DNA of 64,000 nt from an uncultured Gammaproteobacteria bacterium (GCA_963922815.1 CAWUKD010000001.1:36631-100630); one strand, 5' to 3'. Shown: positions 219 through 53,373, numbered from the stretch's first letter. The notes: generated from the sequence alone by a model not told the origin. A program made the numbers and translations.

Positions 219-2804
219 CTATCGGTGTAGCAGTACCGATACTGAGCCGGAAGAAGGGTTTGTCGCGACCAAATCAGGGCGTCCGTCGCCGTTCAGGTCA
301 CCGATTGCCACTGTGCCCTCGTCGCTCGCCGTAAAGTACGCCCCCGACCGAAACGTGCCGTCTCCGTTACCCAACAGCACAGTGAGAATCTTATTAAAAT
401 TGCCGACTGAAACGATGTCTGGAAATCCATCTGAATTCAGATCGCCGATGGATACCCAAAACGGCCCTGAATAGGTCTCGTAGGTCTGGGAAAACGACTG
501 AAACGTACCATCTCCGTGGCCCAAATTCACGATCACATTGCCGGCTCCAGCAGTGACCCGATCCAAGATGGCGTCTTCATTGAGATAGCCGACAGCAAGA
601 GCACCCGATGGGCTATTGACGTAGCCCACGTACGACCCTGATGGGGATCCGAGGGAGCCGCTGCCATTGCCTAGCAGCACTGAGAACGAAATCTCGTCCT
701 TGGTCGAGACGTTATTCGTTACCACGTCGGGAATCTCGTCACCGTTGAAATCACCCGTGGCCATTGAGCGCGGGAAGATGGTCGGGAAGTCGTAGTGTTG
801 ATTCGCGATCTCAAACGGAGCTCCAGCCTGGAGAGAACCGTCCCCAAATCCCAGAAGCACCGACACATCACGCGATTGGAGGTTTGAAGTAACGACGTCT
901 GCGATGGAATCAGAATTCATGTCTTCAATGGCTAAGGAAAGCGGAGCGTGGCCGTTCACGGTGGTCGCTAACGCTGCCTGGAATGTCCCATCGCCGTTGC
1001 CCAGGAGAACGCTGACATCATCGCTGCCGGCATTCGCCGTAACCAAATCGACGAATGAGTCCCCGTTCATGTGGGCGCTCGCAATTGAATAGGGTGCTTC
1101 TCCCATGTCCGTTGTCATCGCTACCTGAAAGGTTCCATCGCCATTACCCAGAAGCACGGAAACGTCATGGGAACTAGTATTTGCAGTGGCCAAGTCGGGA
1201 ACAGCGTCACCGTTCAGGTCCGTGATAACTACCGAGCGCGGACTGGCGCCTACAGCATATTCGGGTGCAGGCGTGGGCAGACTACCGTGGCCCTCGCCCA
1301 ACAGCACCGCTCCGGTCGACGTAACCGCGTCGACTACACCGTCACCATTCAAATCGCTGATGGCTATGTCTGGGTCAGGGAAGTTAGTACCGGTGCCACG
1401 CCCGGCATGAGGTGCCTGGGCGACGAAACTACCGTCGCCGTTGCCAAACAAGATGGCACCGCCCCCGGCAACAAGATCCGGAGCTAAGTCGCCATTTAAA
1501 TCGAAAATCTTGATGTGTCCAATAGAGTCTTCGCCATTGTCAATCACAATGGGCGCCTGAAAGCTGCTATCACCATTGTTCAGCGACACCAATATCTGGT
1601 ACTGACTAGGGCTCTGCCCAAAAATTCCAACCGTCGTTACGAGGTCTACCGCCTCATCGGCATTCAGGTCGCCGACAGCGAAGGTACGCAAACTAAGGAT
1701 GTCGCTGCCTAGCATGATCGACAACGACGGTTGAAAACTACCGTCACCGTTGCCAAGCAGTATCGACACGTCGTCAGAACCCCCATTGAGCGTCATAAGG
1801 TCAAGCGTTCTATCACCATTCATATCCCCGATAGTTATTGCGAAAGGGCCGTCCCCAGCGCCAATACTCTGGGCTGGCGCAAAACTACCGCCGCCGAATC
1901 CAAAAAGTACAGATACATCGTCGGAAGAACGATTTGCGGTGGCCAAATCCGGGATGCCATCCGCATTCAAATCACCAATGGCGATAGAGCTGGGCCTATC
2001 CCCCGCGTCGAGTTGTTCAGCCGCAAGAAAACCACCATTGCCGGTTGCGAGTAGAACGGTGATCGTATCATTAGCGCGACTAGCGGCCACGACGTCCGGA
2101 AGGTTGTCCGCGTTAACATCGCCGATTGCCACCGAATGGGCTTCGGCCCCAATGTCAAAGGTCTGTGTTTTTACAGAAAACCCGTCGCCGGTGCCTAGCC
2201 ATATCGACACGTTGCCCGAGTTTCCTTCGGCAAGCGCAATATCTGGAATGGTGTCGCCGTTCAAGTCTGCTGTATCGAGTGCATATGCTCTAGAGCCAAA
2301 TGGTATTCGCCCTCCTGGGTACATGAATTGCGGAGACTCCTGCGGCGTGGCGCAAAGGTTGTCAGCCCTACCGCTCGGACCCGGGGCCAGGAGGAAGCGC
2401 GATGTCATGATGCTAAAATCGATAAAGTTCACTGCGCCGTCGCCGTTGAAATCTGCGTCAGGGTCAGCAGTTGAGAACACAGACCCGAACAACCCAATGT
2501 CGACGAAGTTGACGATGCAATCATTATTTAAATCAGGATCGCACATGTTTCCGATGCCGTCTGCATCGGTGTCGCGTTGAAACAGGTTGAAGAGGTTTAC
2601 ACAATTGTCGCTAAGGTTAAGAGTGCCGTCGTCATCTATGTCGCCCGGAGTACGTGTCGCGAACGGAGCCGCCCACGATACGGCGGCGAACATTGTCGCC
2701 ATTAAAAGGGCACTGGTGATTAGTGTGGGGATTAACTGACGGGGCCGGTCAATCAAAGTTGTCGACCTAAGTCGGCATGCCAAGTGTGAGTGTGAGTTAT
2801 CCAT
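219..2804 (-). CDS. Secreted FG-GAP/VCBS-repeat protein, paralog A (predicted double 7-bladed beta-propeller) with N-terminal TSP3/dockerin-like Ca-binding module
   Basis: Track ORF 219..2822 starts at TTG; the ATG at 2804 is preferred and gives 861 aa, matching the paralogs. Signal-like stretch LIPTLITSALLMATMFAAVSWAAP. Module at aa ~61-157 of the track ORF: DIDDDG..DNC..QRDTDADGIGNMCDPDLNNDC..DFNGDGAVNFIDF..PGPSG. I counted 14 D-x-N-x-D loops of the type GDLNGDGxPDLV..S.DVSVLLGNGDGTFQ. Confidence 0.85.
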   Translation of the reverse strand: MDNSHSHLACRLRSTTLIDRPRQLIPTLITSALLMATMFAAVSWAAPFATRTPGDIDDDGTLNLSDNCVNLFNLFQRDTDADGIGNMCDPDLNNDCIVNFVDIGLFGSVFSTADPDADFNGDGAVNFIDFSIMTSRFLLAPGPSGRADNLCATPQESPQFMYPGGRIPFGSRAYALDTADLNGDTIPDIALAEGNSGNVSIWLGTGDGFSVKTQTFDIGAEAHSVAIGDVNADNLPDVVAASRANDTITVLLATGNGGFLAAEQLDAGDRPSSIAIGDLNADGIPDLATANRSSDDVSVLFGFGGGSFAPAQSIGAGDGPFAITIGDMNGDRTLDLMTLNGGSDDVSILLGNGDGSFQPSLSIMLGSDILSLRTFAVGDLNADEAVDLVTTVGIFGQSPSQYQILVSLNNGDSSFQAPIVIDNGEDSIGHIKIFDLNGDLAPDLVAGGGAILFGNGDGSFVAQAPHAGRGTGTNFPDPDIAISDLNGDGVVDAVTSTGAVLLGEGHGSLPTPAPEYAVGASPRSVVITDLNGDAVPDLATANTSSHDVSVLLGNGDGTFQVAMTTDMGEAPYSIASAHMNGDSFVDLVTANAGSDDVSVLLGNGDGTFQAALATTVNGHAPLSLAIEDMNSDSIADVVTSNLQSRDVSVLLGFGDGSLQAGAPFEIANQHYDFPTIFPRSMATGDFNGDEIPDVVTNNVSTKDEISFSVLLGNGSGSLGSPSGSYVGYVNSPSGALAVGYLNEDAILDRVTAGAGNVIVNLGHGDGTFQSFSQTYETYSGPFWVSIGDLNSDGFPDIVSVGNFNKILTVLLGNGDGTFRSGAYFTASDEGTVAIGDLNGDGRPDLVATNPSSGSVSVLLHR

Positions 2805-2843
2805 TTCAAATTCCGATTCCAAAATGCCCAGGGTGACTCCGGC

Positions 2844-5432
2844 TTAGCGTTGCAACAGGAGCACGAGCTCCCGTACTCCATTGTGGGTGGTGACCACATC
2901 CGGTTGATTGTCTCCATTGAGGTCTCCAACGGCGAGCTGCCCAGGCCTATCGGCGCCCATAAAGTGTGCTTTGCGAAACAGTCCATCACCAGAGCCCAAC
3001 AGCACAACGACATTGTCGTCGACCGGATTGTTGTCGATCCTATTTGTTGCCACCAAGTCCTGAACCAGGTCGCCGTTCAGGTCGGCAACCGCGATGGAAC
3101 CCAGATCAATGTCAGTGTAGGGGGTGTTTATCGTCGACGGGAAGCCGCCATCACCGTCACCAATGAACAATCTCAGGGACCCCGTCGTGTAGACGATGGC
3201 CACGTCCAAAACTTGATCGCCATCAAGATCTTCAATGGTGTAGGACTTTACCGCGAAATCTGTACTGTAAACTACAGGATCCTGGAAGCTGCCGTTGCCA
3301 ACACCCATTAATACCGAGATGACGCCAGCTCCACCCGGTCCGGAGCCATTGACCGCGATCAGATCTGGGATTGCGTCGCCATTCAGGTCCTGGATTTCCA
3401 CTCCTAGTGGTTCAATCCCGGAACCAATATCCAGTTGAGACGCAACCTGAAACTGGCCATCGCCATCACCCAAGAGTATGGAGATGTCATTGGTCAGTGT
3501 GTTCGCTGTAACAATATCGGGAAGAGCATCGTCGTTGATATCACCAATAGCTACTGACTCTGGCGACTCACCAACCAAAAATATCCTCTCAGGCTGATAA
3601 AGGCCTTCGCCAACGCCAAGAAAAACCGATACATCATTGGTGTCGATATTGGCGGCAACCAGATCTGCTATGTTGTCGGCGTTCACGTCCGCGATAGCAA
3701 CTGAGCCCGGGTCGCCTGTGCGCAGTGTAGGCAGGATGCGCTGGAACTCGCCAGCTCCGTCTCCGCGGAACACGGTTATCTTTTTGGCTGCCCTGCTGGT
3801 GGTGACCATATCAAGATTCTGATCCCCGTCGATGTCACCAAGTGTAATGGAGTCCGGTCGATTGATGTCGCTTATGGATTTCCAAGTCTGGACACCGCCG
3901 CTGAGAGTACCCGGCCACACGGCTATGGTATCGCGCAGCCGCAGCGCGCCGACGACATCGGGAATTGAATCGCCGTTCATGTAGCCCAGGGCAATGGCAA
4001 TTGACGAGTTTCTAGCACCCGTGTTAAAAACCTGGGGCGGCTCAAAACCGCCGTCGCCAATGCCCTTAGCTACCGAAACCCGCCCAAAGCTCCCCGAATC
4101 GAACGAAGTGCTTGCCATGACTAAATCCGGGATCGTGTCAGCGTTCATATCACCTATTGCCAGCCCGAATAAAAAACCGCCGCCTGGGTCCACCACAGGT
4201 GCCGGTAAAAAACTACCGTCTCCATTTCCAAGGAGAATTGAAACGTCGTTAGAGCTGCGATTTTGGGTGACGAGATCCGGCACTGAATCGCCGTTCAGAT
4301 CGGCAATTTCGACAGCCTCTGGATAGTTTCCAACACTGAAGGTTAAGGTTATCAGGAAGCCCCCTTCACCATTTCCCAATAACACCGAAACCGTATTATT
4401 CGAGTTTGCTGTGACAACGTCCAACATCGAGTCATCGTTGAGATCGGCTACGGCCACCGCGTTGGGCGAAGGCCCGACGCTGGCTAACCACGCCACCTGA
4501 AAAGTGCCGTCTCCATTTCCGATCAGAACGGATATCTCGTCCGTGTTGCGAGCGGTGGTGAACAGATCTGGAATGTTATCGCCGTTCAAATCTCCAATTG
4601 CCACAGACACTGGCTCGGGGTCAACACTGATTGCCACGGGCGCCTGAAAACCGCCGAAGCCGTTACCAAACACTATCGCCACCTCGTCGGCTTGTGCGTT
4701 AGCCGTTATGATGTCCAATATAGTATCGCCATTCAGATCGCCGATCGCCATGGCATTTGGCCGGTTCCCTACCGTATAGTTGACCGCGGTGCCTAAGCCG
4801 CCGTCGCTGTCACTCAGGAGCACGCTCAAGTTAGACGAGAACGAGTAGGTGTTAACTACATCCGGCCGACCATCGTTGTTAAAGTCACCGATCGCGACTC
4901 TATTTGGGTTGTTGCCAACTGAATACACGGTACCGGGGAACATCTCGTGCAGCGCGACGGGAACAGCCGGGCACGCGTTGTTGGCCAAACCACTCGGACC
5001 AGGAGCACCAAAAAAGCTCGTTGTCATGATACTTAGATCTAAAAAGTTGACATTGCCGTCACCGTTGAGATCCGCATCCGGGTCGAAGCCGAAAAACACC
5101 GACGTCATCATGGCCAGATCCAAAAAGTTGATCGCACAGTCGTTATTGAGGTCGGCATCACAAACATTGCCGATGCCATCGAAGTCCGAATCACGCTGTT
5201 GGAGGTTTGCGATGTTCAAGCAATTGTCGAGGGAATCGTCGATCCCGTCACCATCTAAATCTCCTGCAACCACCATTACGACCATCGCATCGTTAGTTGG
5301 GAGGGCTGATGCTGTGTGCGATAAGCCGATCAGCGAAATCAGAATCGTCATCGCGTACGCCGCAATGACAACAATAGATCGGTAACGCACGTCTGTGCCA
5401 GAAAGATAAAGCCAATGTGCGTTTGACGACAT
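2844..5432 (-). CDS. Secreted FG-GAP/VCBS-repeat protein, paralog B, same architecture
   Basis: Track ORF 2844..5531. The internal ATG at 5432 (MSSNAHW..) sits just before the hydrophobic segment IVVIAAYAMTILISLIGLSHTASA, removes the overlap with the upstream gene and gives 862 aa. Module: DLDGDG..DNC..QRDSDFDGIGNVCDADLNNDC..DLNGDGNVNFLDL..PGPSG. 14 FG-GAP loops counted. Confidence 0.85.
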   Translation of the reverse strand: MSSNAHWLYLSGTDVRYRSIVVIAAYAMTILISLIGLSHTASALPTNDAMVVMVVAGDLDGDGIDDSLDNCLNIANLQQRDSDFDGIGNVCDADLNNDCAINFLDLAMMTSVFFGFDPDADLNGDGNVNFLDLSIMTTSFFGAPGPSGLANNACPAVPVALHEMFPGTVYSVGNNPNRVAIGDFNNDGRPDVVNTYSFSSNLSVLLSDSDGGLGTAVNYTVGNRPNAMAIGDLNGDTILDIITANAQADEVAIVFGNGFGGFQAPVAISVDPEPVSVAIGDLNGDNIPDLFTTARNTDEISVLIGNGDGTFQVAWLASVGPSPNAVAVADLNDDSMLDVVTANSNNTVSVLLGNGEGGFLITLTFSVGNYPEAVEIADLNGDSVPDLVTQNRSSNDVSILLGNGDGSFLPAPVVDPGGGFLFGLAIGDMNADTIPDLVMASTSFDSGSFGRVSVAKGIGDGGFEPPQVFNTGARNSSIAIALGYMNGDSIPDVVGALRLRDTIAVWPGTLSGGVQTWKSISDINRPDSITLGDIDGDQNLDMVTTSRAAKKITVFRGDGAGEFQRILPTLRTGDPGSVAIADVNADNIADLVAANIDTNDVSVFLGVGEGLYQPERIFLVGESPESVAIGDINDDALPDIVTANTLTNDISILLGDGDGQFQVASQLDIGSGIEPLGVEIQDLNGDAIPDLIAVNGSGPGGAGVISVLMGVGNGSFQDPVVYSTDFAVKSYTIEDLDGDQVLDVAIVYTTGSLRLFIGDGDGGFPSTINTPYTDIDLGSIAVADLNGDLVQDLVATNRIDNNPVDDNVVVLLGSGDGLFRKAHFMGADRPGQLAVGDLNGDNQPDVVTTHNGVRELVLLLQR

Positions 5433-5502
5433 CCTGCCCTGTCTTAGAGATAAACAGGTCATCTTCAAGTACTCCATTCCATTCCTCCCGGCCCCGTCTC
5501 GT

Positions 5503-8085
5503 TCAGGGTTGCAGCACAACAGTGACGGCATCGTCCAGTGAATTAATGAACACCAGATCTGGACGCGAATCGCCGTTCAAATCGCCGATTGCCGGGCGAA
5601 CAGCGGACGTATCGGCAGCAAATCGAAGCGCTGCCAGAAAGTTGCCTTCACCGTCGCCAAGATAGACACTGAAAGTGCCCTCGCCGGTTAGAACAATATC
5701 TGGAATATCGTCGTCGTTTACATCCTGAATGACCGCCCCCGACGTTATATAAGGCGCGTCGTAGGTCTGAACTGTGTAGGTAAGTCCATTCCCTGTGCCC
5801 AGCGCCACAGCGTAGTGACCGTCCTCTTCCATGAAAAAATTAGTCGGGCTGGTGGCGAGCAGGTCTGGAATATTATCAGCATTAAAATCGCCAATGGCGA
5901 CAGCAAAAGGAGGATAGTTGGTGTTGGTCGGCCAACCAGCCTGAAAGCTGCCATCCCCGTTTCCCAGTAGTACCAACAAGTGGGCAATGCTGACGTTCCC
6001 CACAACCAGGTCAGCGATTTGATCCCCATTAAGGTCGCCAGTGGCCAAATCGCCCGTTCTTCCAAATCCGGCATAGTATGTTGCTGGCGAGCCGAAGCTT
6101 CCGTCGCCATTGCCGAGCATAATTGACACATAACTGTCTGAGCCCGAACTCGCCAGATCAGGAACCCCGTCGCCATCAAAATCGGATACCACTACATAGC
6201 CGCCTCCGGCCGGATAGGATTGAGCAGTTTGCATGCCACCTTCGCCATCGCCCAGAAACACCGATACGTCATTAGAGAACGCATTTGCCGTGACCACGTC
6301 CGGGATCTCGTCGCCGTTAAGATCACTAATTTTGACAGAACGTGGATCGCCACCAGTGTCGAACCACTCCTCAGGCTGGAAGCTGCTGTCGCCGTTGCCC
6401 AGCAAGACAGAGATGTCATTCGAATCCCGATTTGCCGTAACAAGATCTGGAACATCGTCACCATCAAGATCACCCATGGTGACAGATGCCGGCCGAATAC
6501 CAGTTCGGAACGATTGCGGAACAACAAAACCGCCATCGGCCCCTCTGGTTAGAATGATCAAGCTTGTGGCTGCAGCAACCACGTCAGTAATGCCGTCGCC
6601 ATTCAGGTCAGCGATGTCCACATGCCACGCTCTGTTACCGAGGTGGGCGGGATGCGCGTCCTGGAACTGGCCGTCGCCAAGTCCCAGCATAGACCAAACA
6701 TCATTGTCGCCGCCGACGATCAGATCAGGAACACCGTCGTTGTTTAATTCTCCTATCTTGATGGTACGTGAAATATCGCCCACCTCGATCGTAGGGGCCG
6801 GTTGGAAGCTCATGCCGCCGTCGCCCAGCAAGATCGTAATCGTCTCGATTCCAGGACCGGTATCAGGCTCGATGCTGGAGACCACGATGTCGAGGATTGA
6901 ATCATCGTTAAGATCACCCAGCGCCAACTGACGTAACGAACTCAAACTGGCTAATGTAATTAACATCGGCGCCTGAAAACTGCCATCGCCGTTGCCCACT
7001 AACACCGAAAAATGGTTTGAGTTAGTCTGGCTCGAGACACTTCTCAGCGTGACTAAATCCGGGATTTCGTCGCCATCAATGTCCCCAATTGTTACTGTAC
7101 CCACTCGGTCACCAGCAGGAAACGAAATCGCCGGATCAAAGTCGCTCTTACCATTTCCAAGCAATACCGACACGTTGTCGTCATTGATGTTGGCCGTTAC
7201 AATATCGGGTACGTCGTCGCCGTTGAGGTCTCCAACAGCCAGAGAAACCGGGGAGTTACCCACGGGCCTGTCAAAGGTCGTCTGGAAGTCGCCGTCGCCA
7301 GTACCAAGTAATATCGAGACATCACGTGACCCTTGATTCATCGCCACGAGATCCACAATTTCGTCACCATTCAGGTCACCGGCGAAAAGCTCCATTGTAT
7401 AGTTCCCGGCACCGAAGTATCGCGCGGGTCCAAACGAACCCGCCCCGTCGTTAAAGAATATGGCCACTGTGTCTGAGTCCAATGTCGGCGTTGCCATGTC
7501 GAGCGTACCGTCGCCGTCCAGGTCTTCGATGACTACCCACCTTGTCTGACCAACGACATCGTGCCGGTAGTTGGGGTAGAGCGCCTGGCCGTCGAGCGGT
7601 GGTATAGCGCACGCGCTGCCGGGGACGCCGCTTGGTCCGGGCACGCTATAGAAATCCCTCTTCATAATGCTAAAATCCAGGAAGTTGACCGTGCCGTCGC
7701 CGTTGAAATCTTCTTCCGGATCCGATGATGATAAAAACTCGGACGACAGTCGATCAAAATCCTCGAAGTTGATTATGCAGTCGTTGTTCAGGTCTGCATC
7801 GCAGGCGTTACCAATGCCATCTCCGTCTGTGTCCCTCTGAGCCGAATTTGCGATAAGCAGGCAGTTGTCGCTGGCATCGGCCACGCCGTCGCTATCTGTG
7901 TCGACAAGACGAGCCGATAAATTGATGTTGTGAGGCTTAGTCGCGAATTCGATGCCTTCTACAGGAGTGCTCAATAGCAAGCTCACCATTAGCGGACAGG
8001 CTAAAAACAGTAAGCTGGCTCTACGTATTTTCGACTTAACAGTAGTAAAAACGCACGTGCGACAAACATGGTCGATCGATTGCAT
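5503..8085 (-). CDS. Secreted FG-GAP/VCBS-repeat protein, paralog C, same architecture (first gene of the trio)
   Basis: Track ORF 5503..8160. The ATG at 8085 (MQSIDH..) gives 860 aa; starts at 8145 or 8160 are also possible. Signal-like KSKIRRASLLFLACPLMVSLLLSTPVEG. Module: DTDSDG..DNC..QRDTDGDGIGNACDADLNNDC..DFNGDGTVNFLDF..PGPSG. 14 FG-GAP loops counted. Confidence 0.85.
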   Translation of the reverse strand: MQSIDHVCRTCVFTTVKSKIRRASLLFLACPLMVSLLLSTPVEGIEFATKPHNINLSARLVDTDSDGVADASDNCLLIANSAQRDTDGDGIGNACDADLNNDCIINFEDFDRLSSEFLSSSDPEEDFNGDGTVNFLDFSIMKRDFYSVPGPSGVPGSACAIPPLDGQALYPNYRHDVVGQTRWVVIEDLDGDGTLDMATPTLDSDTVAIFFNDGAGSFGPARYFGAGNYTMELFAGDLNGDEIVDLVAMNQGSRDVSILLGTGDGDFQTTFDRPVGNSPVSLAVGDLNGDDVPDIVTANINDDNVSVLLGNGKSDFDPAISFPAGDRVGTVTIGDIDGDEIPDLVTLRSVSSQTNSNHFSVLVGNGDGSFQAPMLITLASLSSLRQLALGDLNDDSILDIVVSSIEPDTGPGIETITILLGDGGMSFQPAPTIEVGDISRTIKIGELNNDGVPDLIVGGDNDVWSMLGLGDGQFQDAHPAHLGNRAWHVDIADLNGDGITDVVAAATSLIILTRGADGGFVVPQSFRTGIRPASVTMGDLDGDDVPDLVTANRDSNDISVLLGNGDSSFQPEEWFDTGGDPRSVKISDLNGDEIPDVVTANAFSNDVSVFLGDGEGGMQTAQSYPAGGGYVVVSDFDGDGVPDLASSGSDSYVSIMLGNGDGSFGSPATYYAGFGRTGDLATGDLNGDQIADLVVGNVSIAHLLVLLGNGDGSFQAGWPTNTNYPPFAVAIGDFNADNIPDLLATSPTNFFMEEDGHYAVALGTGNGLTYTVQTYDAPYITSGAVIQDVNDDDIPDIVLTGEGTFSVYLGDGEGNFLAALRFAADTSAVRPAIGDLNGDSRPDLVFINSLDDAVTVVLQP

Positions 8086-8473
8086 TCTTAACTCATACGT
8101 TCTTTCGGCTTTAGTACTGCAGTGTTTCTGTAGGTGGCCTCCCATCCTGTTTGACCTCATTAGTTATCTAGCTAACTACATCTTTAGCACTATTTAGAGT
8201 GATTAATCGATAATTGAAAAGGTGGTGTCTGCTCCAAAATCAATCGTTTCAATGAGTAATCAGACGATAGTACAAGCCGAGGAAAATTCTACCATAGCGC
8301 GCCCTTCCTGGCGAACACGCCAAAATATTCCACCGGTGAGGGATACGATTGCTGCTCTAGAAACGTCATAGCCGGGAGTATTTGAAAGTTCTTACTTCGA
8401 TTCTTATTAACATAAGGTCGCGATAGGAATGCCGGTTACCAGGCACCCCTCGCAAAGATCCCAGCGTGCGCTA

Positions 8474-37468: not shown

Positions 37469-37647
37469 CATTTTGACTCATTCATGACGGCACCCACCGA
37501 GCGTTGTTGCCGACAAAATCCCCTTGGTTTCGCAATGACAACGTTGGACAATGCGTTTCAGATTTGGCGACAAAACATAACGCCATTCCATCAACGCGCC
37601 AGGTCGCAGCCGTCGGTTGGATCAGGGCATCGTTTTCTTTACACTAC

Positions 37648-37680
37648 GGGCGTCCAATTCGGGGCACGACGCCCTTTTTT
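37648..37680 (+). terminator. Rho-independent terminator 180 nt after the UDG gene and 38 nt before the gap start
   Basis: gggcgtc-(13 nt)-gacgccc followed by tttttt. Confidence 0.55.
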
Positions 37681-37718
37681 CTATTAGAACAACCCCCTTT
37701 TGCCAGAAGGAATGCACT

Positions 37719-39322: not shown

Positions 39323-40300
39323 CTAGTCGAGTACGGGCAGCGGCCAGTCTTCGAAATCGCTTTCTGCCACCGCCGCCTCCCCGGATCCATTCGCACTTTG
39401 AAAGCTGATATCGATACTCTGCGGTGACACCAGGTGAATAAACTCTTCCATATGGGGCTGAATGACCGCGTTTTTCTTGAACCCGATCCAGGTTGTGCTG
39501 CGTGGAAATAACCCGGACGCATCCAGTGCCACCAGATCGGACTCCTGCCCGGCGTCGAACGCCATGCTCGCGACAATGCCAACCCCCATACCCATACGCA
39601 CATAGGTTTTAATGACATCGGCATCGCGCGCGGTAAACACCACATCCGGTTTCAGGCTGCGAACATCAAACGCCTGGGTCAACGATGACTCCCGGCCAAA
39701 ACTGAACACGTAGGTCACCAATGGGTAGTCCGCAAGGAGCTCAAGCGTCAGAGGCGTGTCCAGCCGGGCCAGCTCGTGCTCGACCGGCACCAGCACAATC
39801 CGGTCCCACTGAAAACAGGGCACACGCACCAGGTCGCTGAAATGTTCGTCCGAGCCACTCGCCATGGCGAAATCGATTTCGTCGCGCTGAACCAGCTCGG
39901 CGATCTGTTCCGACGTTCCCTGGTGCAGATTCAGTTTGACGTCCGGATAGCGTTCGCGAAAACGAGCAATAATTTCCGGAAGCACGTATCGGGCCTGGGT
40001 ATGCGTCGTCGCGATGGACAACACGCGCTCTTCGTCCCGGTGCTCTGCGGTACGTGACTTGATGCTCTCCACGTGGAACATAACGCGGCGAGCATGCTCA
40101 ATCACTTTTTCGCCGGCGGGCGTTATCCCGGTCAGACTCCGCCCTTTACGATCAAACAGAGGCACACCCAGCTCGTCCTCAAGCAGCTTGATCTGCTTGC
40201 TGACACCGGGCTGCGACGTATACAGCCGCTCCGCAGCGGCTGTGATACTGAGGCGGCTGTCCACCACCGCAAGTAAAAATCTGAGTTGCTGTAATTTCAT
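39323..40300 (-). CDS. cysB: LysR-family regulator CysB
   Basis: MKLQQLRFL..LYTSQPGVSKQIKLLEDELG is collinear with E. coli CysB as recalled. 325 aa. Confidence 0.9.
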   Translation of the reverse strand: MKLQQLRFLLAVVDSRLSITAAAERLYTSQPGVSKQIKLLEDELGVPLFDRKGRSLTGITPAGEKVIEHARRVMFHVESIKSRTAEHRDEERVLSIATTHTQARYVLPEIIARFRERYPDVKLNLHQGTSEQIAELVQRDEIDFAMASGSDEHFSDLVRVPCFQWDRIVLVPVEHELARLDTPLTLELLADYPLVTYVFSFGRESSLTQAFDVRSLKPDVVFTARDADVIKTYVRMGMGVGIVASMAFDAGQESDLVALDASGLFPRSTTWIGFKKNAVIQPHMEEFIHLVSPQSIDISFQSANGSGEAAVAESDFEDWPLPVLD

Positions 40301-40514: not shown

Positions 40515-41954
40515 TCAATTCACGGCAACCGGTTTCAGTTGCAAGGTATTTTCTGACTGCGGCTGAAACCACTGCTGGGTCTTTGCGTACGCGGCAACTT
40601 CACCAATAATCAGCATGGCCGGCGCCTCAATGCGCTCGCGTTTCGCAAGCTCGGCGAGCCCCCGAAGCGTGCCCACCGATACGCGCTGATCAGGCCTCGT
40701 ACCGCGCTCAATGACCGCTACCGGCGTGTCGCCGTGCCGGCCATGCAGCTGAAGCTTTCTCGAGATCTCGCCAAACCGGGACACGCCCATATACAGCGCC
40801 AGCGTTTGCCGGTCACGAGCCAGAGCACGCCAGTCGTGCGTATCCTGGGAGTCTTTGCCATGGCCTGTGATCAGCGACACCGACTGCGCGTGATCACGAT
40901 GGGTCAGGGGTATGCCTGCGTAGGCCGCGCAGGCCGACGCCGCCGTAATCCCGGGAACGATCTGATAGCGCAATCCCTCCGCCTGCAAGGCGGTTACCTC
41001 TTCTCCGCCGCGACCGAACACAAACGGATCACCACCCTTCAGCCGGCACACGCGCTTACCTTCACTAACCAGCCTGATCAGCAGGGCGGTCGTCTGGTCC
41101 TGCACGTGGCTGGCGCAGCCGGTTCCCGGCAACGGCTTGCCGACGTCAATAAACTCGGCGTCACGTCGTGCCATGGCGAGAATCGCATCCGGCACCAGGC
41201 GGTCGTGCAACACAACATCGGCACGATGCAGCAGCTGCTGGGCACGCAGGGTCAGCAAGGACGGATCGCCAGGACCCGCTCCGACCAGCCACGCTTCCCC
41301 TTCTCCGCTTGCTGCCGAATCACGTGCAAAAGCTTCCAGCTGGTGATCCATCGCGTCATCGAGCTGCTGCGGGTGTTGTGTGTGAGCCGCCTCAACATGC
41401 CGCGAAAAAAACGTTTCCCAGAACCGTCGCCTCGCCGTTAGCGACACCAGCCTGAGCTTGACGCGGTCTCGCCAGCGAGCAGCCAGACGGGCAAGCGACG
41501 CGTACCCGTCTGACAGTTCCCGCTCGAGCTTTTCCCTGACCATGCGCGCCAGCACGGGCGCCGAGCCACCGCTTGAAATGGCAATTACCAGAGGCGACCG
41601 GTCGACAATGGCCGGCGTAATGAAACTGGAGTGATCCGGATCGTCAACCGAGTTGCTTAACATCGCGCGTTGTTCAGCGTCCTTAAAAACCTGCGCATTG
41701 ACGTCCGGCGAATTCGTCGCAGCAATGACCAACACGTTACCGGGCAGAAACATCGGTGAATAGACGCCAGGTACGTAGTCAACGAGCGCCGCAGCACTCA
41801 TCGCCTGAACCTGCGGATTAAGCTCTGGTGCTACCACGGTAACGCGGGCGCCAGCCTCCTTCAGAAGGCGGATTTTGCGCAAGGCCACGTCGCCGCCGCC
41901 GACGACAAGACAGCGGCGGCCCGACAGGTTCGCAAACAGGGGAAAATAGTCCAT
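40515..41954 (-). CDS. cysG: Siroheme synthase (precorrin-2 dehydrogenase/ferrochelatase + uroporphyrinogen-III methyltransferase)
   Basis: MDYFPLFANL..RCLVVGGGDVALRK, LVGAGPGDP, RLKGGDPFVFGRGGEE. The ATG at 41954 lies 2 nt after the cysH stop. Confidence 0.92.
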   Translation of the reverse strand: MDYFPLFANLSGRRCLVVGGGDVALRKIRLLKEAGARVTVVAPELNPQVQAMSAAALVDYVPGVYSPMFLPGNVLVIAATNSPDVNAQVFKDAEQRAMLSNSVDDPDHSSFITPAIVDRSPLVIAISSGGSAPVLARMVREKLERELSDGYASLARLAARWRDRVKLRLVSLTARRRFWETFFSRHVEAAHTQHPQQLDDAMDHQLEAFARDSAASGEGEAWLVGAGPGDPSLLTLRAQQLLHRADVVLHDRLVPDAILAMARRDAEFIDVGKPLPGTGCASHVQDQTTALLIRLVSEGKRVCRLKGGDPFVFGRGGEEVTALQAEGLRYQIVPGITAASACAAYAGIPLTHRDHAQSVSLITGHGKDSQDTHDWRALARDRQTLALYMGVSRFGEISRKLQLHGRHGDTPVAVIERGTRPDQRVSVGTLRGLAELAKRERIEAPAMLIIGEVAAYAKTQQWFQPQSENTLQLKPVAVN

Positions 41955-41956
41955 GG

Positions 41957-42742
41957 TCAGGAATCCGCGACCGACTCGAGTTCGTGAATACCGCATTCAC
42001 GTTTCAGGCCGAAGAAACGCGTGTCTTCAACGCGATCCACCTCATGCAGCGAACGCGTGGTGTGCACGTCGCCAATAGACACATAGCCCTGCTCCCACAG
42101 CGGGTGGTACGGCAGGTTGTGACGCTTTAGATAAAGAAAAACGTCTTTGTCCGTCCAGTCGAGGATCGGATGCGCTTTCCACACGCCGCCGCGATATTCC
42201 ACAAACGGCAGTTTGCTTCGGCCATCGGATTGACCACGACGCAAGCCCGCAAACCAGGTACCCGCGTTCAGCTCGCGCAGCGCGCGGCGCATGGGCTCAA
42301 CCTTGTTTTCCGCATTGTACGACTCGATGCCGCTCACACCGTGCGCCCAGCGCTGGCCGCTGCGTGCCTCCTGCCAGGCCGCACTGACCTTCGGGCGAAA
42401 CACCTGCAGATTCAACTCAAGCCGGTCGGTCAGCTCGTCTATGAACTGATACGTTTCAGGAAACAGATACCCGGTATCCAGCAGAATAACGGGTATATCG
42501 GGAACCTGCCGGGTCAGCAGATGCAGGGAAACAGCCGCCTGTGCGCCGAAGCTTGACGACAGCACGTGAACCGATGGCAGGGTTTCGAGCGCCCAGGTTA
42601 CGCGCTGCTCTGCCGTGAGCGCCTGCAGGCATTCGTTAGCTCGGGCAATCGCAACCTGCCGGCTACCCGACTCATCAAGCGTCAGCGCGCCGCAGGGCAA
42701 GGATCGGGGAAAGTTTGAGACGACGGATGCCTGTGCGTTCAT
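41957..42742 (-). CDS. cysH: Phosphoadenosine phosphosulfate (PAPS) reductase type CysH
   Basis: [13 protein letters not shown], and a C-terminal ECGIHE as in E. coli CysH. No CC...CxxC iron-sulfur cysteine cluster of APS reductases is visible. ATGA overlap with the cysI stop. Confidence 0.88.
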
Positions 42743-47934: not shown

Positions 47935-50391
47935 TCAGAGCAAGCCGCTGGGACCCGGCGGTAACAAAAAGAATTCGCCGAGCAGTTCAAAGTCGAGAAA
48001 ATCCACCTTGCCGTCGCCGTTGAAGTCGGCGTCCTCATCATCAGACTGAAAGCGCTGTGCAAACAAAGCTATATCGACAAAGTTGGTGACCTGATCATCA
48101 TTAAGGTCCGTATCGCAAGCGTTCCCGAATCCATCCGCATTGCTGTCTCGCTGATCGCTATTGGCCCGATCCAGACAGTTGTCCGCCGTATTGGCAACAC
48201 CATCAAGATCGCTATCGGCCTGCGCCGCTACTCCGAGGGTTAGTCGCGTTGGGCTCAGACCCACGGCATCCGGCACCAGCAACACACTGCCGTAATAAGG
48301 CCCATCCTGTGCGCTTGCCATATCGAACACAACGTCGATAGCTTGTTCCTCGCCGGCGTCGAGCGTAAAACTTTGCGGAATAGCCGAAACGATTGGGCCC
48401 GCCTGATCGGTCTCCACCACTACCGTCCAGCTAGCAGGCGCCACGGCCTTGACCGTGCGAGACCAGGAGCATTCGTTTACGCAGTTCAGATCAACCAGTC
48501 CGGCCAAATTCATGCGCGACGGCTGACCGCCCTGAGCGGGGTTCGCCGCTTCAAACCCGGCGATCGTTTCGTTCAGTAATAACCCGGCCTGAACCGCAGC
48601 CGCCACGTCGATGCGACCGCCGCCGTAATCAAAGGGAGTGGTCGGATCATCTTCAAATTGCTCGTCCAATGGACCCACACCGGTGGTCATCAACGCTGAC
48701 AGCACTTCAGCGTCGGACCAATCAGGCCTGGCCGATTTAATCAGGGCTATCGCACCGCCACCGGGCCCCGCTGCCGGACCGGTCGCCACCTTGAACGACG
48801 CTTCCCCGGTTGGAACAATGACATCAATCGACGGTACGGCAACCGAAGGGGCCAGATAGTCAAGCCCCAGCACCGGGCCCCGGCTGCTCGCGCCGGAAAC
48901 ACGATCGGCCAGCTCCGGATCAATGGGCGCGTCGTTAAGCGTGATAGAGGCTGCATGCCCGCTTCCGCTGGCAAGCCAGGTCCGCAGTAAAGTAGAGTCT
49001 GCGGCATTCAGATGAATACCGGGAAACGGGAAGAAATCCGCGTGTACAGAATCAAAGCCGCCGACCACATTAGCGAGCACCATGCCACCGGCACCGGAAT
49101 CCAGTGCGTTCTGGGCTTTTTGTATGCGTGCAATCTGACCGCGATCACAGACCAGAATTTCACCGTTAAGCGTGCCAGGAGGAAACGGCTCAAGGCACTG
49201 CGCAGGGTCAGCAACCGGCACATCGAGACTACCGGCGTACACAATGTTCGCGGTAATTGGTCCGCCGAGAGAACCGCCCAACAAATCACCGGGAGGTGGC
49301 GTATCACCGCCGCTAAAGTTTGTCAGCACCTTGAAATTATTGGTTCGGCCATGGGTGCTCGAGATAAACGTTGCCGTCCACGGAGCGGCCAGACTGAGGC
49401 CCAGCGTTCCGGGTTCAGGTCCGCCGTTGCCAGTTATGTATGCCAGGCTGACGCCGTTGGCCCTGAGTGAAAGACCCGCCAGCCCGTAGAGGCCGTCCCA
49501 GGCCGTACTGATTGACGAGCCGATAAAATGCACGAGCACGTCAACGTCATCGTTGATGGCCTGCTCGAATGCGCTTAGCACACTGGTTGCTGCGCAGCTG
49601 GATTCACACGTTCGATACACGATCAGATTGGCATGAGGTGCAACCCCGGTAACGATCGGAAGCCCAATATTGCCAAGACTGGTCTCGCTCAACCGGTTGC
49701 CCGCAGCCTGACTGGCCGCCGAGTTGCTGGCACCGTCAAGCTCTTCCGAGGTCAGCTGTGAATCATTGCTGAACGTGTAGCGCCCGATCAGCTTGCTGTT
49801 GCACAGGACTTCCGGTGCGGTAAGGCACTCTCCCAGATACACGCCGTCGCCCAGCGGATTGGTGTGCGTGTAACCGTCATCGCCGGTAGCCGCAAAGGCA
49901 GGATGACTGCCGCTGATTCCGGTGCCGGTAATACCGATAACAACACCTTCTCCAAGGTGTCCACTATCATTCGTTGCCGAGCCGTCCCAGACTTCGTTAG
50001 CACGAATCAAATCCACGACAGGATCACCGCTACCGCCCGCACCATTGCGTTCCACCGTGGCCGTCAGTTCGGTCAATTCACGGGGCGATAGAGACGGAGT
50101 CAGCAGTTCGAACACTTCGTCTTTGATAACGGCTTGCACGCCTGGATGGCGACTAAGCCTGGACGCCTCGACGTCGTCCATCAGCGTCGAAAAACCATTG
50201 ATGACGTGTCGGTACTCCCGCACGACTTTTAGTTCGCGTCCAAGATCGGCGTTAAGCTGTGATCGCACCGACGCCGCATTTGCCGACGATTCAAGATGGA
50301 CGATGTAGCTGGCTTCCTCCGCCTGAACGGCACACGTCCCGGCAAGAGCCAACACGCAGGCTACGATGGTGTTTCTTAATGACTGAATCAT
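47935..50391 (-). CDS. Subtilase (peptidase S8, pyrolysin/plant-type with I9 propeptide and PA insert) homolog with Asp/His/Ser all substituted, plus a C-terminal TSP3/dockerin-like module; predicted pseudo-protease
   Basis: Signal peptide ..AGTCAVQA. I9-like YIVHL..VVREYRHVINGFS. Asp box reads VVIGITGTGI (expected ..DTG/DSG..). His box reads DGASNSAASQAAGN (expected DGHGTHTAS.AAGN). Ser box reads VATGPAAGPGGGAIALIK (expected SGTSMA.PHV.G). The oxyanion Asn is kept (ITGNGGP). PA-like ILVCDRGQIARIQK. The last 93 aa match the module of the FG-GAP trio. Confidence 0.85.
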   Translation of the reverse strand: MIQSLRNTIVACVLALAGTCAVQAEEASYIVHLESSANAASVRSQLNADLGRELKVVREYRHVINGFSTLMDDVEASRLSRHPGVQAVIKDEVFELLTPSLSPRELTELTATVERNGAGGSGDPVVDLIRANEVWDGSATNDSGHLGEGVVIGITGTGISGSHPAFAATGDDGYTHTNPLGDGVYLGECLTAPEVLCNSKLIGRYTFSNDSQLTSEELDGASNSAASQAAGNRLSETSLGNIGLPIVTGVAPHANLIVYRTCESSCAATSVLSAFEQAINDDVDVLVHFIGSSISTAWDGLYGLAGLSLRANGVSLAYITGNGGPEPGTLGLSLAAPWTATFISSTHGRTNNFKVLTNFSGGDTPPPGDLLGGSLGGPITANIVYAGSLDVPVADPAQCLEPFPPGTLNGEILVCDRGQIARIQKAQNALDSGAGGMVLANVVGGFDSVHADFFPFPGIHLNAADSTLLRTWLASGSGHAASITLNDAPIDPELADRVSGASSRGPVLGLDYLAPSVAVPSIDVIVPTGEASFKVATGPAAGPGGGAIALIKSARPDWSDAEVLSALMTTGVGPLDEQFEDDPTTPFDYGGGRIDVAAAVQAGLLLNETIAGFEAANPAQGGQPSRMNLAGLVDLNCVNECSWSRTVKAVAPASWTVVVETDQAGPIVSAIPQSFTLDAGEEQAIDVVFDMASAQDGPYYGSVLLVPDAVGLSPTRLTLGVAAQADSDLDGVANTADNCLDRANSDQRDSNADGFGNACDTDLNDDQVTNFVDIALFAQRFQSDDEDADFNGDGKVDFLDFELLGEFFLLPPGPSGLL

Positions 50392-50643
50392 CCCTAATCC
50401 CCCCGGATTACTAATTCTTAACGGTCGCAGTTCTTATCCCTTTACTATACACCCACGTTGAAACAGTGTTTAACAAGCTGATTAATATTATTTTTTCAAA
50501 GGGTCGTGCGCGCAGACACGAAAAACAGGCCCGGCAAAGAGCTTGGGTACTGACCACGGGCTGTTTTGATGCAGCGCCTGTGTGCGAGGACAGGCGATCA
50601 TTTGCGGTACGCCCGATCAAACACTCACAGCGCGAATGGCGGG

Positions 50644-51603: not shown

Positions 51604-53373
51604 TTAATTCGGGTCGACTTTCGACATCTTGCGCGCACGCTTGCGAATCACAGGCTTTTTGAATGCACGTTTGGGTTTCACTGCAGGCGGACTGCTGGTC
51701 GCTTCCGTTTTATCGTCTGCAGCCTTTACAGATGCTTTGCTGCTTGACGCTTTCGTCGCACCTTTTTTCTTGCTCGCCGATTTGCCCGAGGCCTTTTTCT
51801 TTGTGGCAGCACGTTTCCCCGACGCTTTTTTGGCTGACGATTTTTTTGCCGTCGCTTTCTTGCTGGTCGCTTTGCGGCCGATCACTTTCTTTTTCGCCGC
51901 CGGTTTCGTTGTTTTCGCGCTCACCTTACTGACCGCTTTGCCGTCTTCATCGGCTTCGACAATATTCCGGGTGGCGTCATAAAGCTCGTCGAATGATTCC
52001 TGCAGACACTGCGCGTAAAACGCCGGGTCCGGCATCATTTCGCGGCAGCAACATACGGCAATATTAAACGTGCCACAGTAGCTGCCAATGGCGTGGAACA
52101 GTCCTGTCCCGTCAATGGGCGGCCCCATACCAAAGCTGCTGATCATGCGGGCGCCGGTAAAATATAGCGGTACCTGCGGACCGGGTACGTTAGTGATCAC
52201 ACAGTTATAAAGCGGCTTGATCCGATTGACCAGCCCCATGCGACTCGCCAGTCGTGCCGCCGACGCGGTCAGGGTTGACGGTATGAACTGCGCGTAGTCC
52301 GTCATGCTCTTGGCACCTATGGCATTGGTCAGTTCTTTGGCGTGACGCGTACCCTTACTTACCGACAGCAGGCGCTCGATCGGGTCTTCGATATGACTGC
52401 CTATACGGACCGTCATTTGAGACACCTGATTACCCGCCGTACCGAGCTTGTCTTTGGTGCGCACGTTAATGGGCGCCATTGCTGCCAGCGACTTTCGGGG
52501 CAATTCGCTCTTGCTCTCAAGATATTTGCGTAGCCCGCCTCCACAAATGGCAAGCGCCACATCGTTAACCGTTACACCTTCAATCGAGCTTTTAATGGCC
52601 TTGATGTCTTTGAGCTTGAAGAGCACCGAGTCGAACACACGGTGAGGGGAAACATTGGTATTGAACCGGGTGCGCGGCAAGTCGGTAACGCGATTGATAT
52701 TGCCTGCGGCCATGCCGGTAACAAACCTGGTCAGCCCGGGCAGCGTATTGCGCGCGACTGAAAACACCCGCAGCGGTGTTTTAATGGTGTTGATCTGAGC
52801 GCGCCAGAGCAGTTCGAGGTTGGAAGGCATGCGTTCGGTTTCAATCGGACGAACTTCAGGATATTTTTCAGGTGACGGTTCAAGATCATGAATAATGGAC
52901 GCAATCTCCACCCCGGATGCGCCGTCTATGGCCGCGTGGTGCATCTTGCTTAATACGGCGAAACAGCCTGGCGGGTATCCCTCGACATTATCGAGCCCTT
53001 CGATAATGTACATTTCCCACAGCGGATGGGCCCGATCGAGCGGTCGTGCGTGCAGACGGGATACCTGAATACAGAGCTGGCGCCAGTCGCCGGGTTTGGG
53101 TAGCGCGATGTGCCGGATATGAAACTCCGGGTCAAAGTCGCCATCGGCTCGCCAGTAGGGGTGATCAAGACTCAGGGGGACTTCAACCAGCGTATTGGTC
53201 AGTGCGGCAATGCGCTGTGCACGAGCGGTCAGGTTGGCCAGAATTTGCTTGAACGTGACGTGACCGCCTTCCGCCGTAGACGGATCGTAGATGGACAGCC
53301 CTCCAATGTGCATGGGTGTATTGGCTGTTTCCAGATACAAAAACGATGCGTCGAGTCCACTGAGCTGCTGCAC
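51604..53373 (-). CDS. Wax ester synthase / diacylglycerol acyltransferase (WS/DGAT) with a ~104-aa C-terminal Lys/Ala/Ser-rich histone-H1-like tail
   Basis: MQQLSGLDASFLYLE..PMHIGGL and the active-site HHAAIDGASG. The C-terminus reads AKTTKPAAKKKVIGRKATSKKATAKKSSAKKASGKRAATKKKASGKSASKKKG..KPKRAFKKPVIRKRARK. Confidence 0.88.
   Translation of the reverse strand: MQQLSGLDASFLYLETANTPMHIGGLSIYDPSTAEGGHVTFKQILANLTARAQRIAALTNTLVEVPLSLDHPYWRADGDFDPEFHIRHIALPKPGDWRQLCIQVSRLHARPLDRAHPLWEMYIIEGLDNVEGYPPGCFAVLSKMHHAAIDGASGVEIASIIHDLEPSPEKYPEVRPIETERMPSNLELLWRAQINTIKTPLRVFSVARNTLPGLTRFVTGMAAGNINRVTDLPRTRFNTNVSPHRVFDSVLFKLKDIKAIKSSIEGVTVNDVALAICGGGLRKYLESKSELPRKSLAAMAPINVRTKDKLGTAGNQVSQMTVRIGSHIEDPIERLLSVSKGTRHAKELTNAIGAKSMTDYAQFIPSTLTASAARLASRMGLVNRIKPLYNCVITNVPGPQVPLYFTGARMISSFGMGPPIDGTGLFHAIGSYCGTFNIAVCCCREMMPDPAFYAQCLQESFDELYDATRNIVEADEDGKAVSKVSAKTTKPAAKKKVIGRKATSKKATAKKSSAKKASGKRAATKKKASGKSASKKKGATKASSSKASVKAADDKTEATSSPPAVKPKRAFKKPVIRKRARKMSKVDPN

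Follow-up and report, generated by a model that had tools for sequence, protein, structure and literature searches.

We analyzed a 64,000-nucleotide stretch of DNA from an uncultured Gammaproteobacteria bacterium (GCA_963922815.1 CAWUKD010000001.1:36631-100630, here called the window), in which a complete gene at 47935..50391 encodes an 818-aa subtilase homolog without any residue of the catalytic triad. The gene and all its features described below lie on the minus strand. The triad is missing throughout a small clade of related proteins, and the conclusion that this is a maintained non-catalytic subtilase scaffold is strongly supported. With regard to function, our preferred reading, to which we give a probability of about 60%, is that of a secreted pseudoprotease, derived from a duplicated, active, dockerin-bearing PA-domain subtilase by one ancient catalytic loss, which would keep its I9 propeptide uncleaved, act in binding or scaffolding, and be docked by its C-terminal module.

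The catalytic triad and the substrate cleft are lost

Catalytic positions were assigned from three independent alignments, namely HMMER alignments to solved structures, a MAFFT alignment with 39 homologs, and a comparison using subtilisin BPN' as a ruler. All three place Gly156 (codon 49924..49926) at the position of the catalytic Asp (BPN' Asp32), Ala221 (codon 49729..49731) at that of the catalytic His (BPN' His64), and Asn322 (codon 49426..49428) at that of the oxyanion-hole Asn (BPN' Asn155), while at the nucleophile position no Ser, Thr, or Cys is found under any gap placement. An earlier note, made from this sequence alone, had described the changes as Asp to Gly, His to Ala, and Ser to Gly; the first two are confirmed as Gly156 and Ala221. 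The third was correct as to the loss of Ser but not as a clean swap, since the nucleophile was removed by a 2-residue deletion of Ser-Met in GTSM (BPN' Ser221-Met222), flanked by Pro539-Ala540 (48772..48777). In gapped alignments, GP--AAGP stands here against GTSMxSPH, and the Ser column opposes Ala540, Pro539, or Gly538 according to gap placement; the reading as Ser to Gly arose because the earlier alignment was ungapped, and it is one of several equivalent placements.

Inspection of the triad columns, as the earlier note had suggested, found all three residues absent. D, H, and S are present in 31/31 active sequences of the alignment, and by this comparison the 818-aa protein lacks what defines an active peptidase. 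All 12 of its His residues were inspected, and near the old site there was no plausible alternative Asp, His, or Ser; His163, 176, 347, and 479 are His in conserved columns and are kept in active relatives too. The flanking strings pointed out earlier (CNSKLIG, GVAPHANL, ITGNGGP, APW, SSRGP, and LMTTG) are all found in the translation.

Across the clade, the Asp position is invariably Gly and the His position is A, S, Y, or F. The oxyanion Asn, which the earlier note regarded as retained, is indeed present in the 818-aa protein, but it does not hold as a clade feature: only P0002 and P0004 also have it, and the position is S or V in 5/8 clade members. Because it is not kept across the clade, it carries no weight. 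The cleft itself has degenerated as well. The equivalents of BPN' 125-127 and 152-155, more than 90% conserved in actives, are variable in the clade, and the substrate strands S-I-G and S-A-G of the actives have become F-I-G and I-T-G in the 818-aa protein. The windows of lowest clade-versus-active conservation are explained by the BPN' 125-127 "SIG" strand, the "SAGN" oxyanion segment, and the start of the "GTSMxSPH" helix. As judged from these alignments, cleft degeneration argues against a simple "substrate-trap" binding in the old cleft.

Comparison of clade and active alignment columns revealed no newly gained clade-invariant Ser, Thr, Cys, His, Asp, Glu, or Lys. The clade-specific invariants are only P124, V125, G156, R204, F359, A598, L629, and G631, with Arg204 as the sole polar one. 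That Gly never varies at the former Asp site looks like the outcome of selection for "no side chain" and not of drift.

The triad-less proteins form a clade maintained by selection

A homology search over 5.8 billion proteins returned a graded series of matches. Besides P0001, held in the public collection and identical to the 818-aa protein, P0002 is 62% identical to it and P0003 to P0008 are 41-49% identical. P0002, P0003-P0008, and the fragment P0011 carry Gly at the Asp site, Ala, Ser, Tyr, or Phe at the His site, and the same 2-residue deletion, whereas from P0009 onward in the series D, H, N, and S are intact in every match. An exhaustive profile search over 1.84 billion cluster representatives, in which the score falls from >1200 bits to 826 bits, added P0128 and P0179 as clade members, and a metagenome scan with the clade profile gave one extra clade variant (L056) and otherwise active relatives only. 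The clade thus comprises about 12 sequences of uncultured marine bacteria, 41-62% identical to the 818-aa protein, all from metagenomes or metagenome-assembled genomes (MAGs) labelled Gammaproteobacteria. Neighbour-joining on two data sets groups the triad-less proteins as a single clade in 100/100 bootstraps and places them beside active S8-PA proteases; mean pairwise identity is 0.48 in the clade versus 0.51 among the actives. The degenerate site varies between deep lineages and is fixed within a lineage.

The contig of P0002 (L001) has the same gene order as the window, with an alpha/beta hydrolase gene, the pseudo-subtilase gene, a saccharopine-dehydrogenase-like gene, cysJ, cysI, and cysH. 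P0002 is therefore a positional ortholog, and it carries the same substitutions. Between the window and L001, the pseudo-subtilase shows 62% identity, equal to that of cysJ, and the other neighbours 70-83%. In L001 (4323-5469), the saccharopine-dehydrogenase-like gene consists of two open reading frames (ORFs; 193 + 180 aa) against a single 428-aa gene in the window, which is either a frameshift or an assembly error.

The ratio of nonsynonymous to synonymous changes (dN/dS, omega) between the window gene and P0002 was undefined owing to saturation of synonymous sites (pS 0.80), and the pair L004/L056, with 3 nucleotide differences, was uninformative. The informative pair was P0006/P0121, with dS 0.39, dN 0.047, and omega 0.12 (bootstrap range 0.09-0.16). 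Within this clade comparison, omega was 0.06 for both S8 halves, 0.10 for the PA domain, 0.04 for the fn3-like domain, 0.07 for the TSP3 repeats, 0.22 for the junction linker, 0.41 for I9, and 0.04 for the pooled former catalytic and cleft boxes. The ortholog and dN/dS checks proposed in the earlier note gave the same substitutions in P0002 and strong purifying selection on the whole protein, former catalytic boxes included. Its statement that the gene is neither an artefact nor a decayed pseudogene agrees with the monophyly of the triad-less clade, with the syntenic ortholog, and with the omega of 0.12.

The architecture is that of a plant/pyrolysin-type subtilase

The protein begins with a Sec-type signal peptide (residues 1-24, 50320..50391, MIQSLRNTIVACVLALAGTCAVQA), recognized by eye and likely cut after VQA; all clade members have a hydrophobic N-terminus. 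A lipoprotein signal (LAGTC) was considered, also by eye only, and rejected, as Thr at -1 is atypical and a signal-peptidase-I site (VQA|EE) follows. The I9 propeptide domain comes next (residues 25-96, 50104..50319), including its tail (..DEVFEL), which in pro-subtilases occupies the cleft; Pfam Inhibitor_I9 matches residues 28-96 with an E-value of 1.5e-9 (38.9 bits versus a cut-off of 21.2). The S8 domain with the degenerate active site spans residues 122-612 (48556..50028) according to Pfam and Foldseek. Peptidase_S8 (PF00082) matches residues 147-571 with 38.4 bits (cut-off 21.8), which places the protein in the S8 superfamily, at a score of 38 bits versus 133 bits in the nearest active relative, P0123. 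Within the S8 span lies the PA domain (residues 380-466, 48994..49254; Pfam PA 1.9e-8, 34.8 bits versus a cut-off of 23.9), which is the region best conserved with the syntenic ortholog P0002 (77% identity). A beta-rich, fn3-like domain of the plant/pyrolysin-subtilase kind follows (residues 613-724, 48220..48555); relatives carry Pfam fn3_6, and the cucumisin and SBT3 alignments cover this region.

The presence of I9, of PA between the His and Ser boxes, and of a C-terminal fn3-like domain identifies the cucumisin/pyrolysin type (S8A + PA). By sequence, the closest solved structures are Bacillus subtilis Vpr (8jmw), a Euphorbia protease (7eox), cucumisin (3vta), and tomato SBT3 (3i6s), with E-values of 5e-24 to 3e-18. 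An AlphaFold2 (AF2) model of the 818-aa protein, built on a 58-sequence alignment, reached pLDDT 87.5 and pTM 0.86, with pLDDT 95-97 in the I9 domain, about 81 in the I9 tail, below 50 in the junction insertion described below, and 91-98 in the all-beta fn3-like region. A model from 8 clade sequences alone (pLDDT 54) left the S8 core unresolved and was discarded. The best Foldseek matches of the model were plant subtilases (7eox, cucumisin, and SBT3; E-values 1e-41 to 1e-34), the second rank being the cucumisin-propeptide complex 4yn3, followed after the plant subtilases by streptococcal C5a peptidases. Uncleaved pro-subtilisins also matched, and the Foldseek probability was 1.00 to cucumisin, SBT3, and subtilisin BPN'. 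Pfam I9/S8/PA, solved-structure matches, and the AF2 and Foldseek results therefore agree with the "plant/pyrolysin-type" architecture proposed earlier. Five Cys pairs are conserved in the clade, and disulfide Cys pairs and structural Gly/Pro residues are also kept in active relatives.

A junction insertion may take the place of propeptide cleavage

Between I9 and the catalytic domain, the 818-aa protein carries a clade-specific insertion (residues 97-121, 50029..50103), variable in sequence and predicted to be disordered. It is 16-27 residues long and occurs in 9/9 full-length clade members and in none of the actives examined, among which its columns are 92% gaps. Directly after it stands D123-P124-V125 (50017-50025), a clade-invariant (D/E)-P-V in which P124 and V125 are absent from actives. 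Conservation of I9 is similar in the two groups, 0.29 within the clade versus 0.32 among actives, with omega below 1.

During subtilisin maturation, cleavage is followed by a movement of the mature domain's N-terminus away from the active site. Since the triad is missing, I9 cannot be autoprocessed here. Together with the conserved I9 and the confident modelling of its tail by AF2, this suggests that I9 may stay attached as a folding cap whose tail covers the degenerate cleft. Located on the P' side of the former cut, the flexible insertion would supply slack, so that the N-terminus of the subtilase domain could reach its mature position uncut; we propose that the insertion is a strict clade character because this slack replaces cleavage. 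A precedent is CspC, whose prodomain stays uncut and covers the degenerate site, where the introduction of bulky residues unfolds the protein (PMC6636752, PMC7200643). Gly156 and the small residues at the former Ser box may, analogously, leave space for the I9 tail.

A predicted calcium-binding module is shared with other secreted proteins

The C-terminal module comprises two thrombospondin type-3 (TSP3)-like Ca-binding repeats with a Cys739-Cys759 pair (residues 725-760, 48112..48219), then a dockerin-like pair of F-hand Ca loops (DLNDDQVTNFVD... and DFNGDGKVDFLD...; residues 761-818, 47938..48111), and last PGPSG, the protein ending PPGPSGLL. Both loops are visible in the sequence, two helices are predicted by AF2 in the dockerin-like region, and the D/N/C columns of the TSP3 repeats are invariant across the clade. 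The Pfam matches of the 818-aa protein are below cut-off: TSP_3 (PF02412) scores 18 bits versus 25, a clade member (P0128) reaching 25.6 bits, and Dockerin_1 (PF00404) scores 18.8 bits versus 22.9, while the copy in ORF 5503-8160 has 29 bits and is above it. An NCBIfam MtsC-like model also matched (1.8e-12), at 47 bits versus a cut-off of 350.

The earlier note had spoken of a shared Ca-binding module, and this module is real: it is found on three proteins of the window, on active S8 proteases, and on a protein with an HExxH motif. The three in the window are tandem FG-GAP/VCBS-repeat proteins on the minus strand (219..8160; Pfam FG-GAP_3, TSP_3, and Dockerin_1), encoded at 219-2822, 2844-5531, and 5503-8160 (867, 895, and 885 aa). 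Each has an N-terminal signal or transmembrane segment and then TSP3, dockerin-like, and "APGPSG" elements; the modules span about 2370-2642, 4986-5228, and 7624-7914 and are 52-57% identical to residues 716-818 by tblastn. They are possible candidates for co-docking partners of the pseudo-subtilase. The second and third of these ORFs overlap by 29 bp.

Further carriers were read from contigs retrieved around relatives. In related MAGs, the TSP3 + dockerin-like + PGP(S/G) module is carried by unrelated secreted proteins (L055 5050-6690; L053 1970-3259; L002 9493-11080; L003 7699-8982). It is C-terminal on a metalloprotease-like protein with HExxH (HETGHCIGLAHP) and on proteins without a recognised domain, and N-terminal on a YD-repeat-like protein. 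A homology search with the C-terminal module alone gave only short contig-end fragments and no architectures. As the module is found at either protein end, it is a domain and not a C-terminal sorting signal, and to our knowledge, the terminal PGP(S/G) motif matches no described sorting or docking signal. Ca-dependent docking of the module to a common partner is the obvious reading.

The nearest actives that end in TSP3 + dockerin + "PPGPSG" are P0123, P0124, P0127, P0129, P0009, and P0010. Given that several of the nearest actives carry the module, it is probably older than the loss of the triad, and the ancestor of the clade was probably an active, module-bearing protease. Module conservation is 0.52 in the clade versus 0.29 in the actives that carry it. 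Active relatives have, before the module, a middle region of 400-600 residues with PPC, DUF11-like, and further domains, which the clade lacks.

Within the clade, P0006 (814 aa; L078 1668-4112) ends inside the dockerin-like module (..LGLLREQ*), its second F-hand gone, and in P0121 (857 aa; L079 8001-10574), 91% identical to it, the module is complete and ends APGPSG. The shortening of P0006 is either a natural truncation or an assembly error.

Proposed function and alternatives

According to our preferred reading, an active, dockerin-bearing, PA-domain subtilase would have been duplicated and one copy would then have lost its catalytic machinery in a single ancient event. The signal peptide and the five conserved Cys pairs suggest that the product is exported by Sec and disulfide bonded. 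It may serve as a non-catalytic binding, scaffolding, or regulatory subunit using surfaces outside the canonical cleft, whose degeneration makes capture of substrate-like peptides unlikely as the new function. Candidate surfaces are the PA domain, the C-terminal half of S8, the fn3-like domain, and the clade-conserved windows at residues 504-518, 563-577, 589-603, and 628-642. The TSP3 + dockerin-like module would hold the pseudoprotease, in a Ca-dependent way, at a docking site common to active S8, FG-GAP, and metalloprotease-like proteins. The proposal of the earlier note that the scaffold has been repurposed for binding and is targeted by the Ca-binding module, possibly with its I9 domain in place, is accordingly plausible.

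Several points weigh against this reading. I9 is the least constrained domain (omega 0.41), and the AF2 model is driven mostly by active homologs, which leaves the docking of I9 and the path of its tail putative. A disordered linker would be an easy target for another protease, so that I9 might be cut off in trans. The clade counts only about 12 sequences, all of them derived from metagenomes or MAGs, and the dockerin and TSP3 scores of the 818-aa protein are under the Pfam gathering cut-offs. "Binding or scaffolding" was arrived at by elimination: the analysis identified neither a ligand nor a partner or cohesin-like receptor, and the window encodes none. Lastly, gene neighbourhoods are not conserved past the closest ortholog, and context gives no functional clue.

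A narrower form of the same reading, possible although on the unlikely side, is that the pseudoprotease partners with an active paralogous subtilase in the manner of the Csp proteins and regulates it, either by allosteric activation or inhibition or by competing for docking site or substrate. Its sister group consists of active S8 proteases, six of which (those named above) carry the same module, so that active and dead types would be recruited to the same place. Regulation of active paralogs is the commonest role of pseudoenzymes (PMC7200643), CspC and CspA acting in this way with CspB and c-FLIP with caspase-8. Against this, an active S8 gene was found neither beside the clade members, in six contexts, nor within the window.

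The secreted, disulfide-bonded architecture would also suit a pure adhesin or structural surface protein, in which the subtilase-PA-fn3 body is a protease-resistant spacer presenting the Ca module or the PA domain. The same module occurs on FG-GAP/VCBS repeat proteins, typical of adhesion; the weak NCBIfam match is to the cell-cohesion protein MtsC, and the solved structure closest in sequence is that of Vpr (8jmw), which forms fibrils. We consider this improbable, as an omega of 0.04 in the former catalytic boxes and an invariant Gly at the Asp site are more than a passive spacer should need, and the MtsC match is far under its cut-off.

The degenerate site might instead have been rebuilt into a new ligand pocket, making the protein an extracellular small-molecule or anion sensor or receptor on a subtilase fold, to which we leave a slim chance. 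The old Asp box reads G-x-x-G-x-G-[IL]-x-G, a GxGxxG-like string in most members, the old His box x-G-[YSAF]-[GS], and the old Ser box G-R-G-S-x-P-G-A-G. These boxes, strongly constrained within a lineage, would form glycine-rich loops where helices begin and along the C-terminal edge of the parallel sheet, which is a classic geometry for binding anions, phosphate, or small molecules, and the flexible junction insertion could allow I9 to work as a lid that opens and closes over the pocket. If true, this would give the bile-acid-sensing CspC a counterpart in a Gram-negative marine bacterium.

It is very unlikely that the protein is still an enzyme with another catalytic center or chemistry. Strong purifying selection on the degenerate-site boxes would fit such a view, and restoration or absence of a canonical triad does not always predict activity (PMC7200643); on the other hand, no clade-invariant residue of catalytic type was gained, the clade-specific invariants include no polar residue but Arg204, a deletion has removed the nucleophile position, and the oxyanion Asn and the substrate strands are not conserved. 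Although all sequences come from metagenomic assemblies and P0006 is truncated relative to P0121, a decaying pseudogene, a sequencing or assembly artefact, or a recently inactivated allele is effectively refuted by the intact 818-codon ORF, by the recurrence of the changes in about 12 independent assemblies diverged to 41% identity, and by a syntenic ortholog, an omega of 0.12, and a divergence equal to that of cysJ.

The gene and its genomic context

The ORF list bears out the uninterrupted reading frame of 818 codons reported in the earlier note, from an ATG start to a TGA stop (47935-47937). The GC content of the gene is 0.58 versus 0.56 for the window. The upstream intergenic region of 252 bp is AT-rich and contains a sigma-70-like promoter match (TAAACA-17-TATAGT, 50444..50472, minus strand), which comes from a consensus scan only and does not demonstrate function. 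Immediately before the ATG stands a G-rich, Shine-Dalgarno-like stretch, GGGGGGATTAGGG, again as a consensus match read from the sequence.

The window is ordinary chromosome, with cysG, cysH, cysI, cysJ, ATP sulfurylase/APS kinase, acyl-CoA metabolism, TonB-dependent receptor, and malate synthase genes. No cohesin, secretion system, or active S8 paralog was found in it, nor was a cohesin partner present among its scanned genes. In the six clade-member contexts examined, there was no conserved neighbourhood beyond the synteny of the closest ortholog and no adjacent active S8 gene. P0006 and P0121 are each directly followed by a T6SS_Tle1-like (DUF2235) hydrolase gene (L078 4243-5436; L079 10705-12011), which is split into two ORFs in L079 and does not lie beside other clade members.

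Elsewhere in the window, several other features were observed. An IS66-family-like transposase ORF of 363 aa with a TTG start (8474-9565, minus strand), recognized by eye from the translation and probably a fragment, sits between the FG-GAP cluster and malate synthase G. Transcription factors are unusual targets of S-adenosylmethionine (SAM) riboswitches; a SAM-II riboswitch (SAM_alpha, RF00521; 40415-40491, minus strand; 44.8 bits versus a gathering cut-off of 36) is located between the genes for sirohaem synthase (40515-41996) and a LysR-type regulator (39323-40300), directly upstream of the latter. A predicted wax-ester synthase/DGAT-like protein of 589 aa (51604-53373, minus strand) is 83% identical to its L001 ortholog over the compared stretch, and has a Lys/Ala/Ser-rich C-terminal tail of about 110 residues (..AKKKVIGRKATSKKATAKKSSAKKASGKRAATKKK..) that resembles histone H1-like or lipid-droplet-binding tails. 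Finally, in a GAPDH-like ORF at 37617-39173 (plus strand; 518 aa from TTG), Gp_dh_N begins only at residue 165, so that either the ORF as listed starts too far upstream or the protein is unusually extended at its N-terminus.

Comparison with known systems

The 818-aa protein shares with the cucumisin/SBT3/pyrolysin-type proteases (3vta, 4yn3, 3i6s, and 7eox; actives P0123, P0124, and P0127) the order of signal peptide, I9, S8 with PA, and fn3-like domain, and it matches the solved ones among them by sequence with E-values of 8e-24 to 3e-18. It differs from cucumisin-type and active S8-PA proteases in having no Asp, His, or Ser, in its degenerate cleft strands, and in the 2-residue deletion in GTSM; relative to active S8-PA proteins, the clade has gained the 16-27 residue junction insertion and has lost the middle region of about 400-600 aa. 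Its C-terminal module resembles non-cellulosomal dockerin/TSP3 modules, which occur on many secreted proteins with two F-hand loops, each with a helix, preceded by DxDxDG-type TSP3 repeats, and differs from them in its placement at either the N- or the C-terminus and in its conserved PGP(S/G) end. That proteases, a pseudoprotease, and FG-GAP and metalloprotease-like proteins have the TSP3 + dockerin + PGPSG module in common suggests a Ca-dependent docking system, so far unexplored, that would link them at or near the cell.

Among the new leads, the junction insertion, the invariant Gly, and this common docking module are the most useful. The clade offers a natural experiment on the requirements of a subtilase that can no longer process itself, and if it is true that a linker replaces cleavage, this would amount to a general rule on prodomain-dependent folding. 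Clade members are named "S8 family serine peptidase" by NCBI; since pipelines use this label, counts of extracellular proteases in marine metagenomes include non-cutting members.

PCSK9 has the subtilase fold and acts by binding rather than by proteolysis, its prodomain staying bound and occluding the cleft. It keeps an intact triad and autoprocesses once, which the 818-aa protein, lacking the triad, cannot do. The closest mechanistic analogue, as far as such an analogy goes, is the Csp pair of Clostridioides difficile, with PCSK9 next. S8 pseudoproteases are already known, namely CspA and CspC of C. difficile and the non-peptidase homologues of MEROPS, a term that denotes a family member without catalytic residues and is a category, not a functional family (PMC5753285). 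In MEROPS, the 818-aa protein would be classed as an S8 "non-peptidase homologue." In the literature searched, we found neither an S8 non-peptidase homologue with the same architecture nor a description of the clade.

CspC and CspA (PMC6636752, PMC7200643, PMC12880746) are likewise non-catalytic S8 members with degenerate triads kept by selection. Their prodomain is not autoprocessed and remains over the degenerate site, as we suppose for I9 by analogy, and small residues (Gly and Thr) replace the catalytic ones and matter for stability, small replacements being present here too. The insert in Csp is a jelly-roll of about 130 aa, whereas here it is a PA domain, consistent with an independent origin in another S8 subfamily, and no Csp chain appeared in the solved-structure sequence matches or among the top 50 fold matches. 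The Csp proteins belong to the Firmicute spore and are encoded with cspB; the 818-aa protein comes from a Gram-negative marine bacterium, is predicted to be secreted, carries a dockerin-like module, and is encoded in a housekeeping gene context without an adjacent active paralog. Bacterial subtilase pseudoenzymes have been studied functionally essentially only in the Csp germination system, to which the clade adds an independent and more radical case: CspC keeps its Asp and has lost two residues, whereas here all three residues and the cleft are lost.

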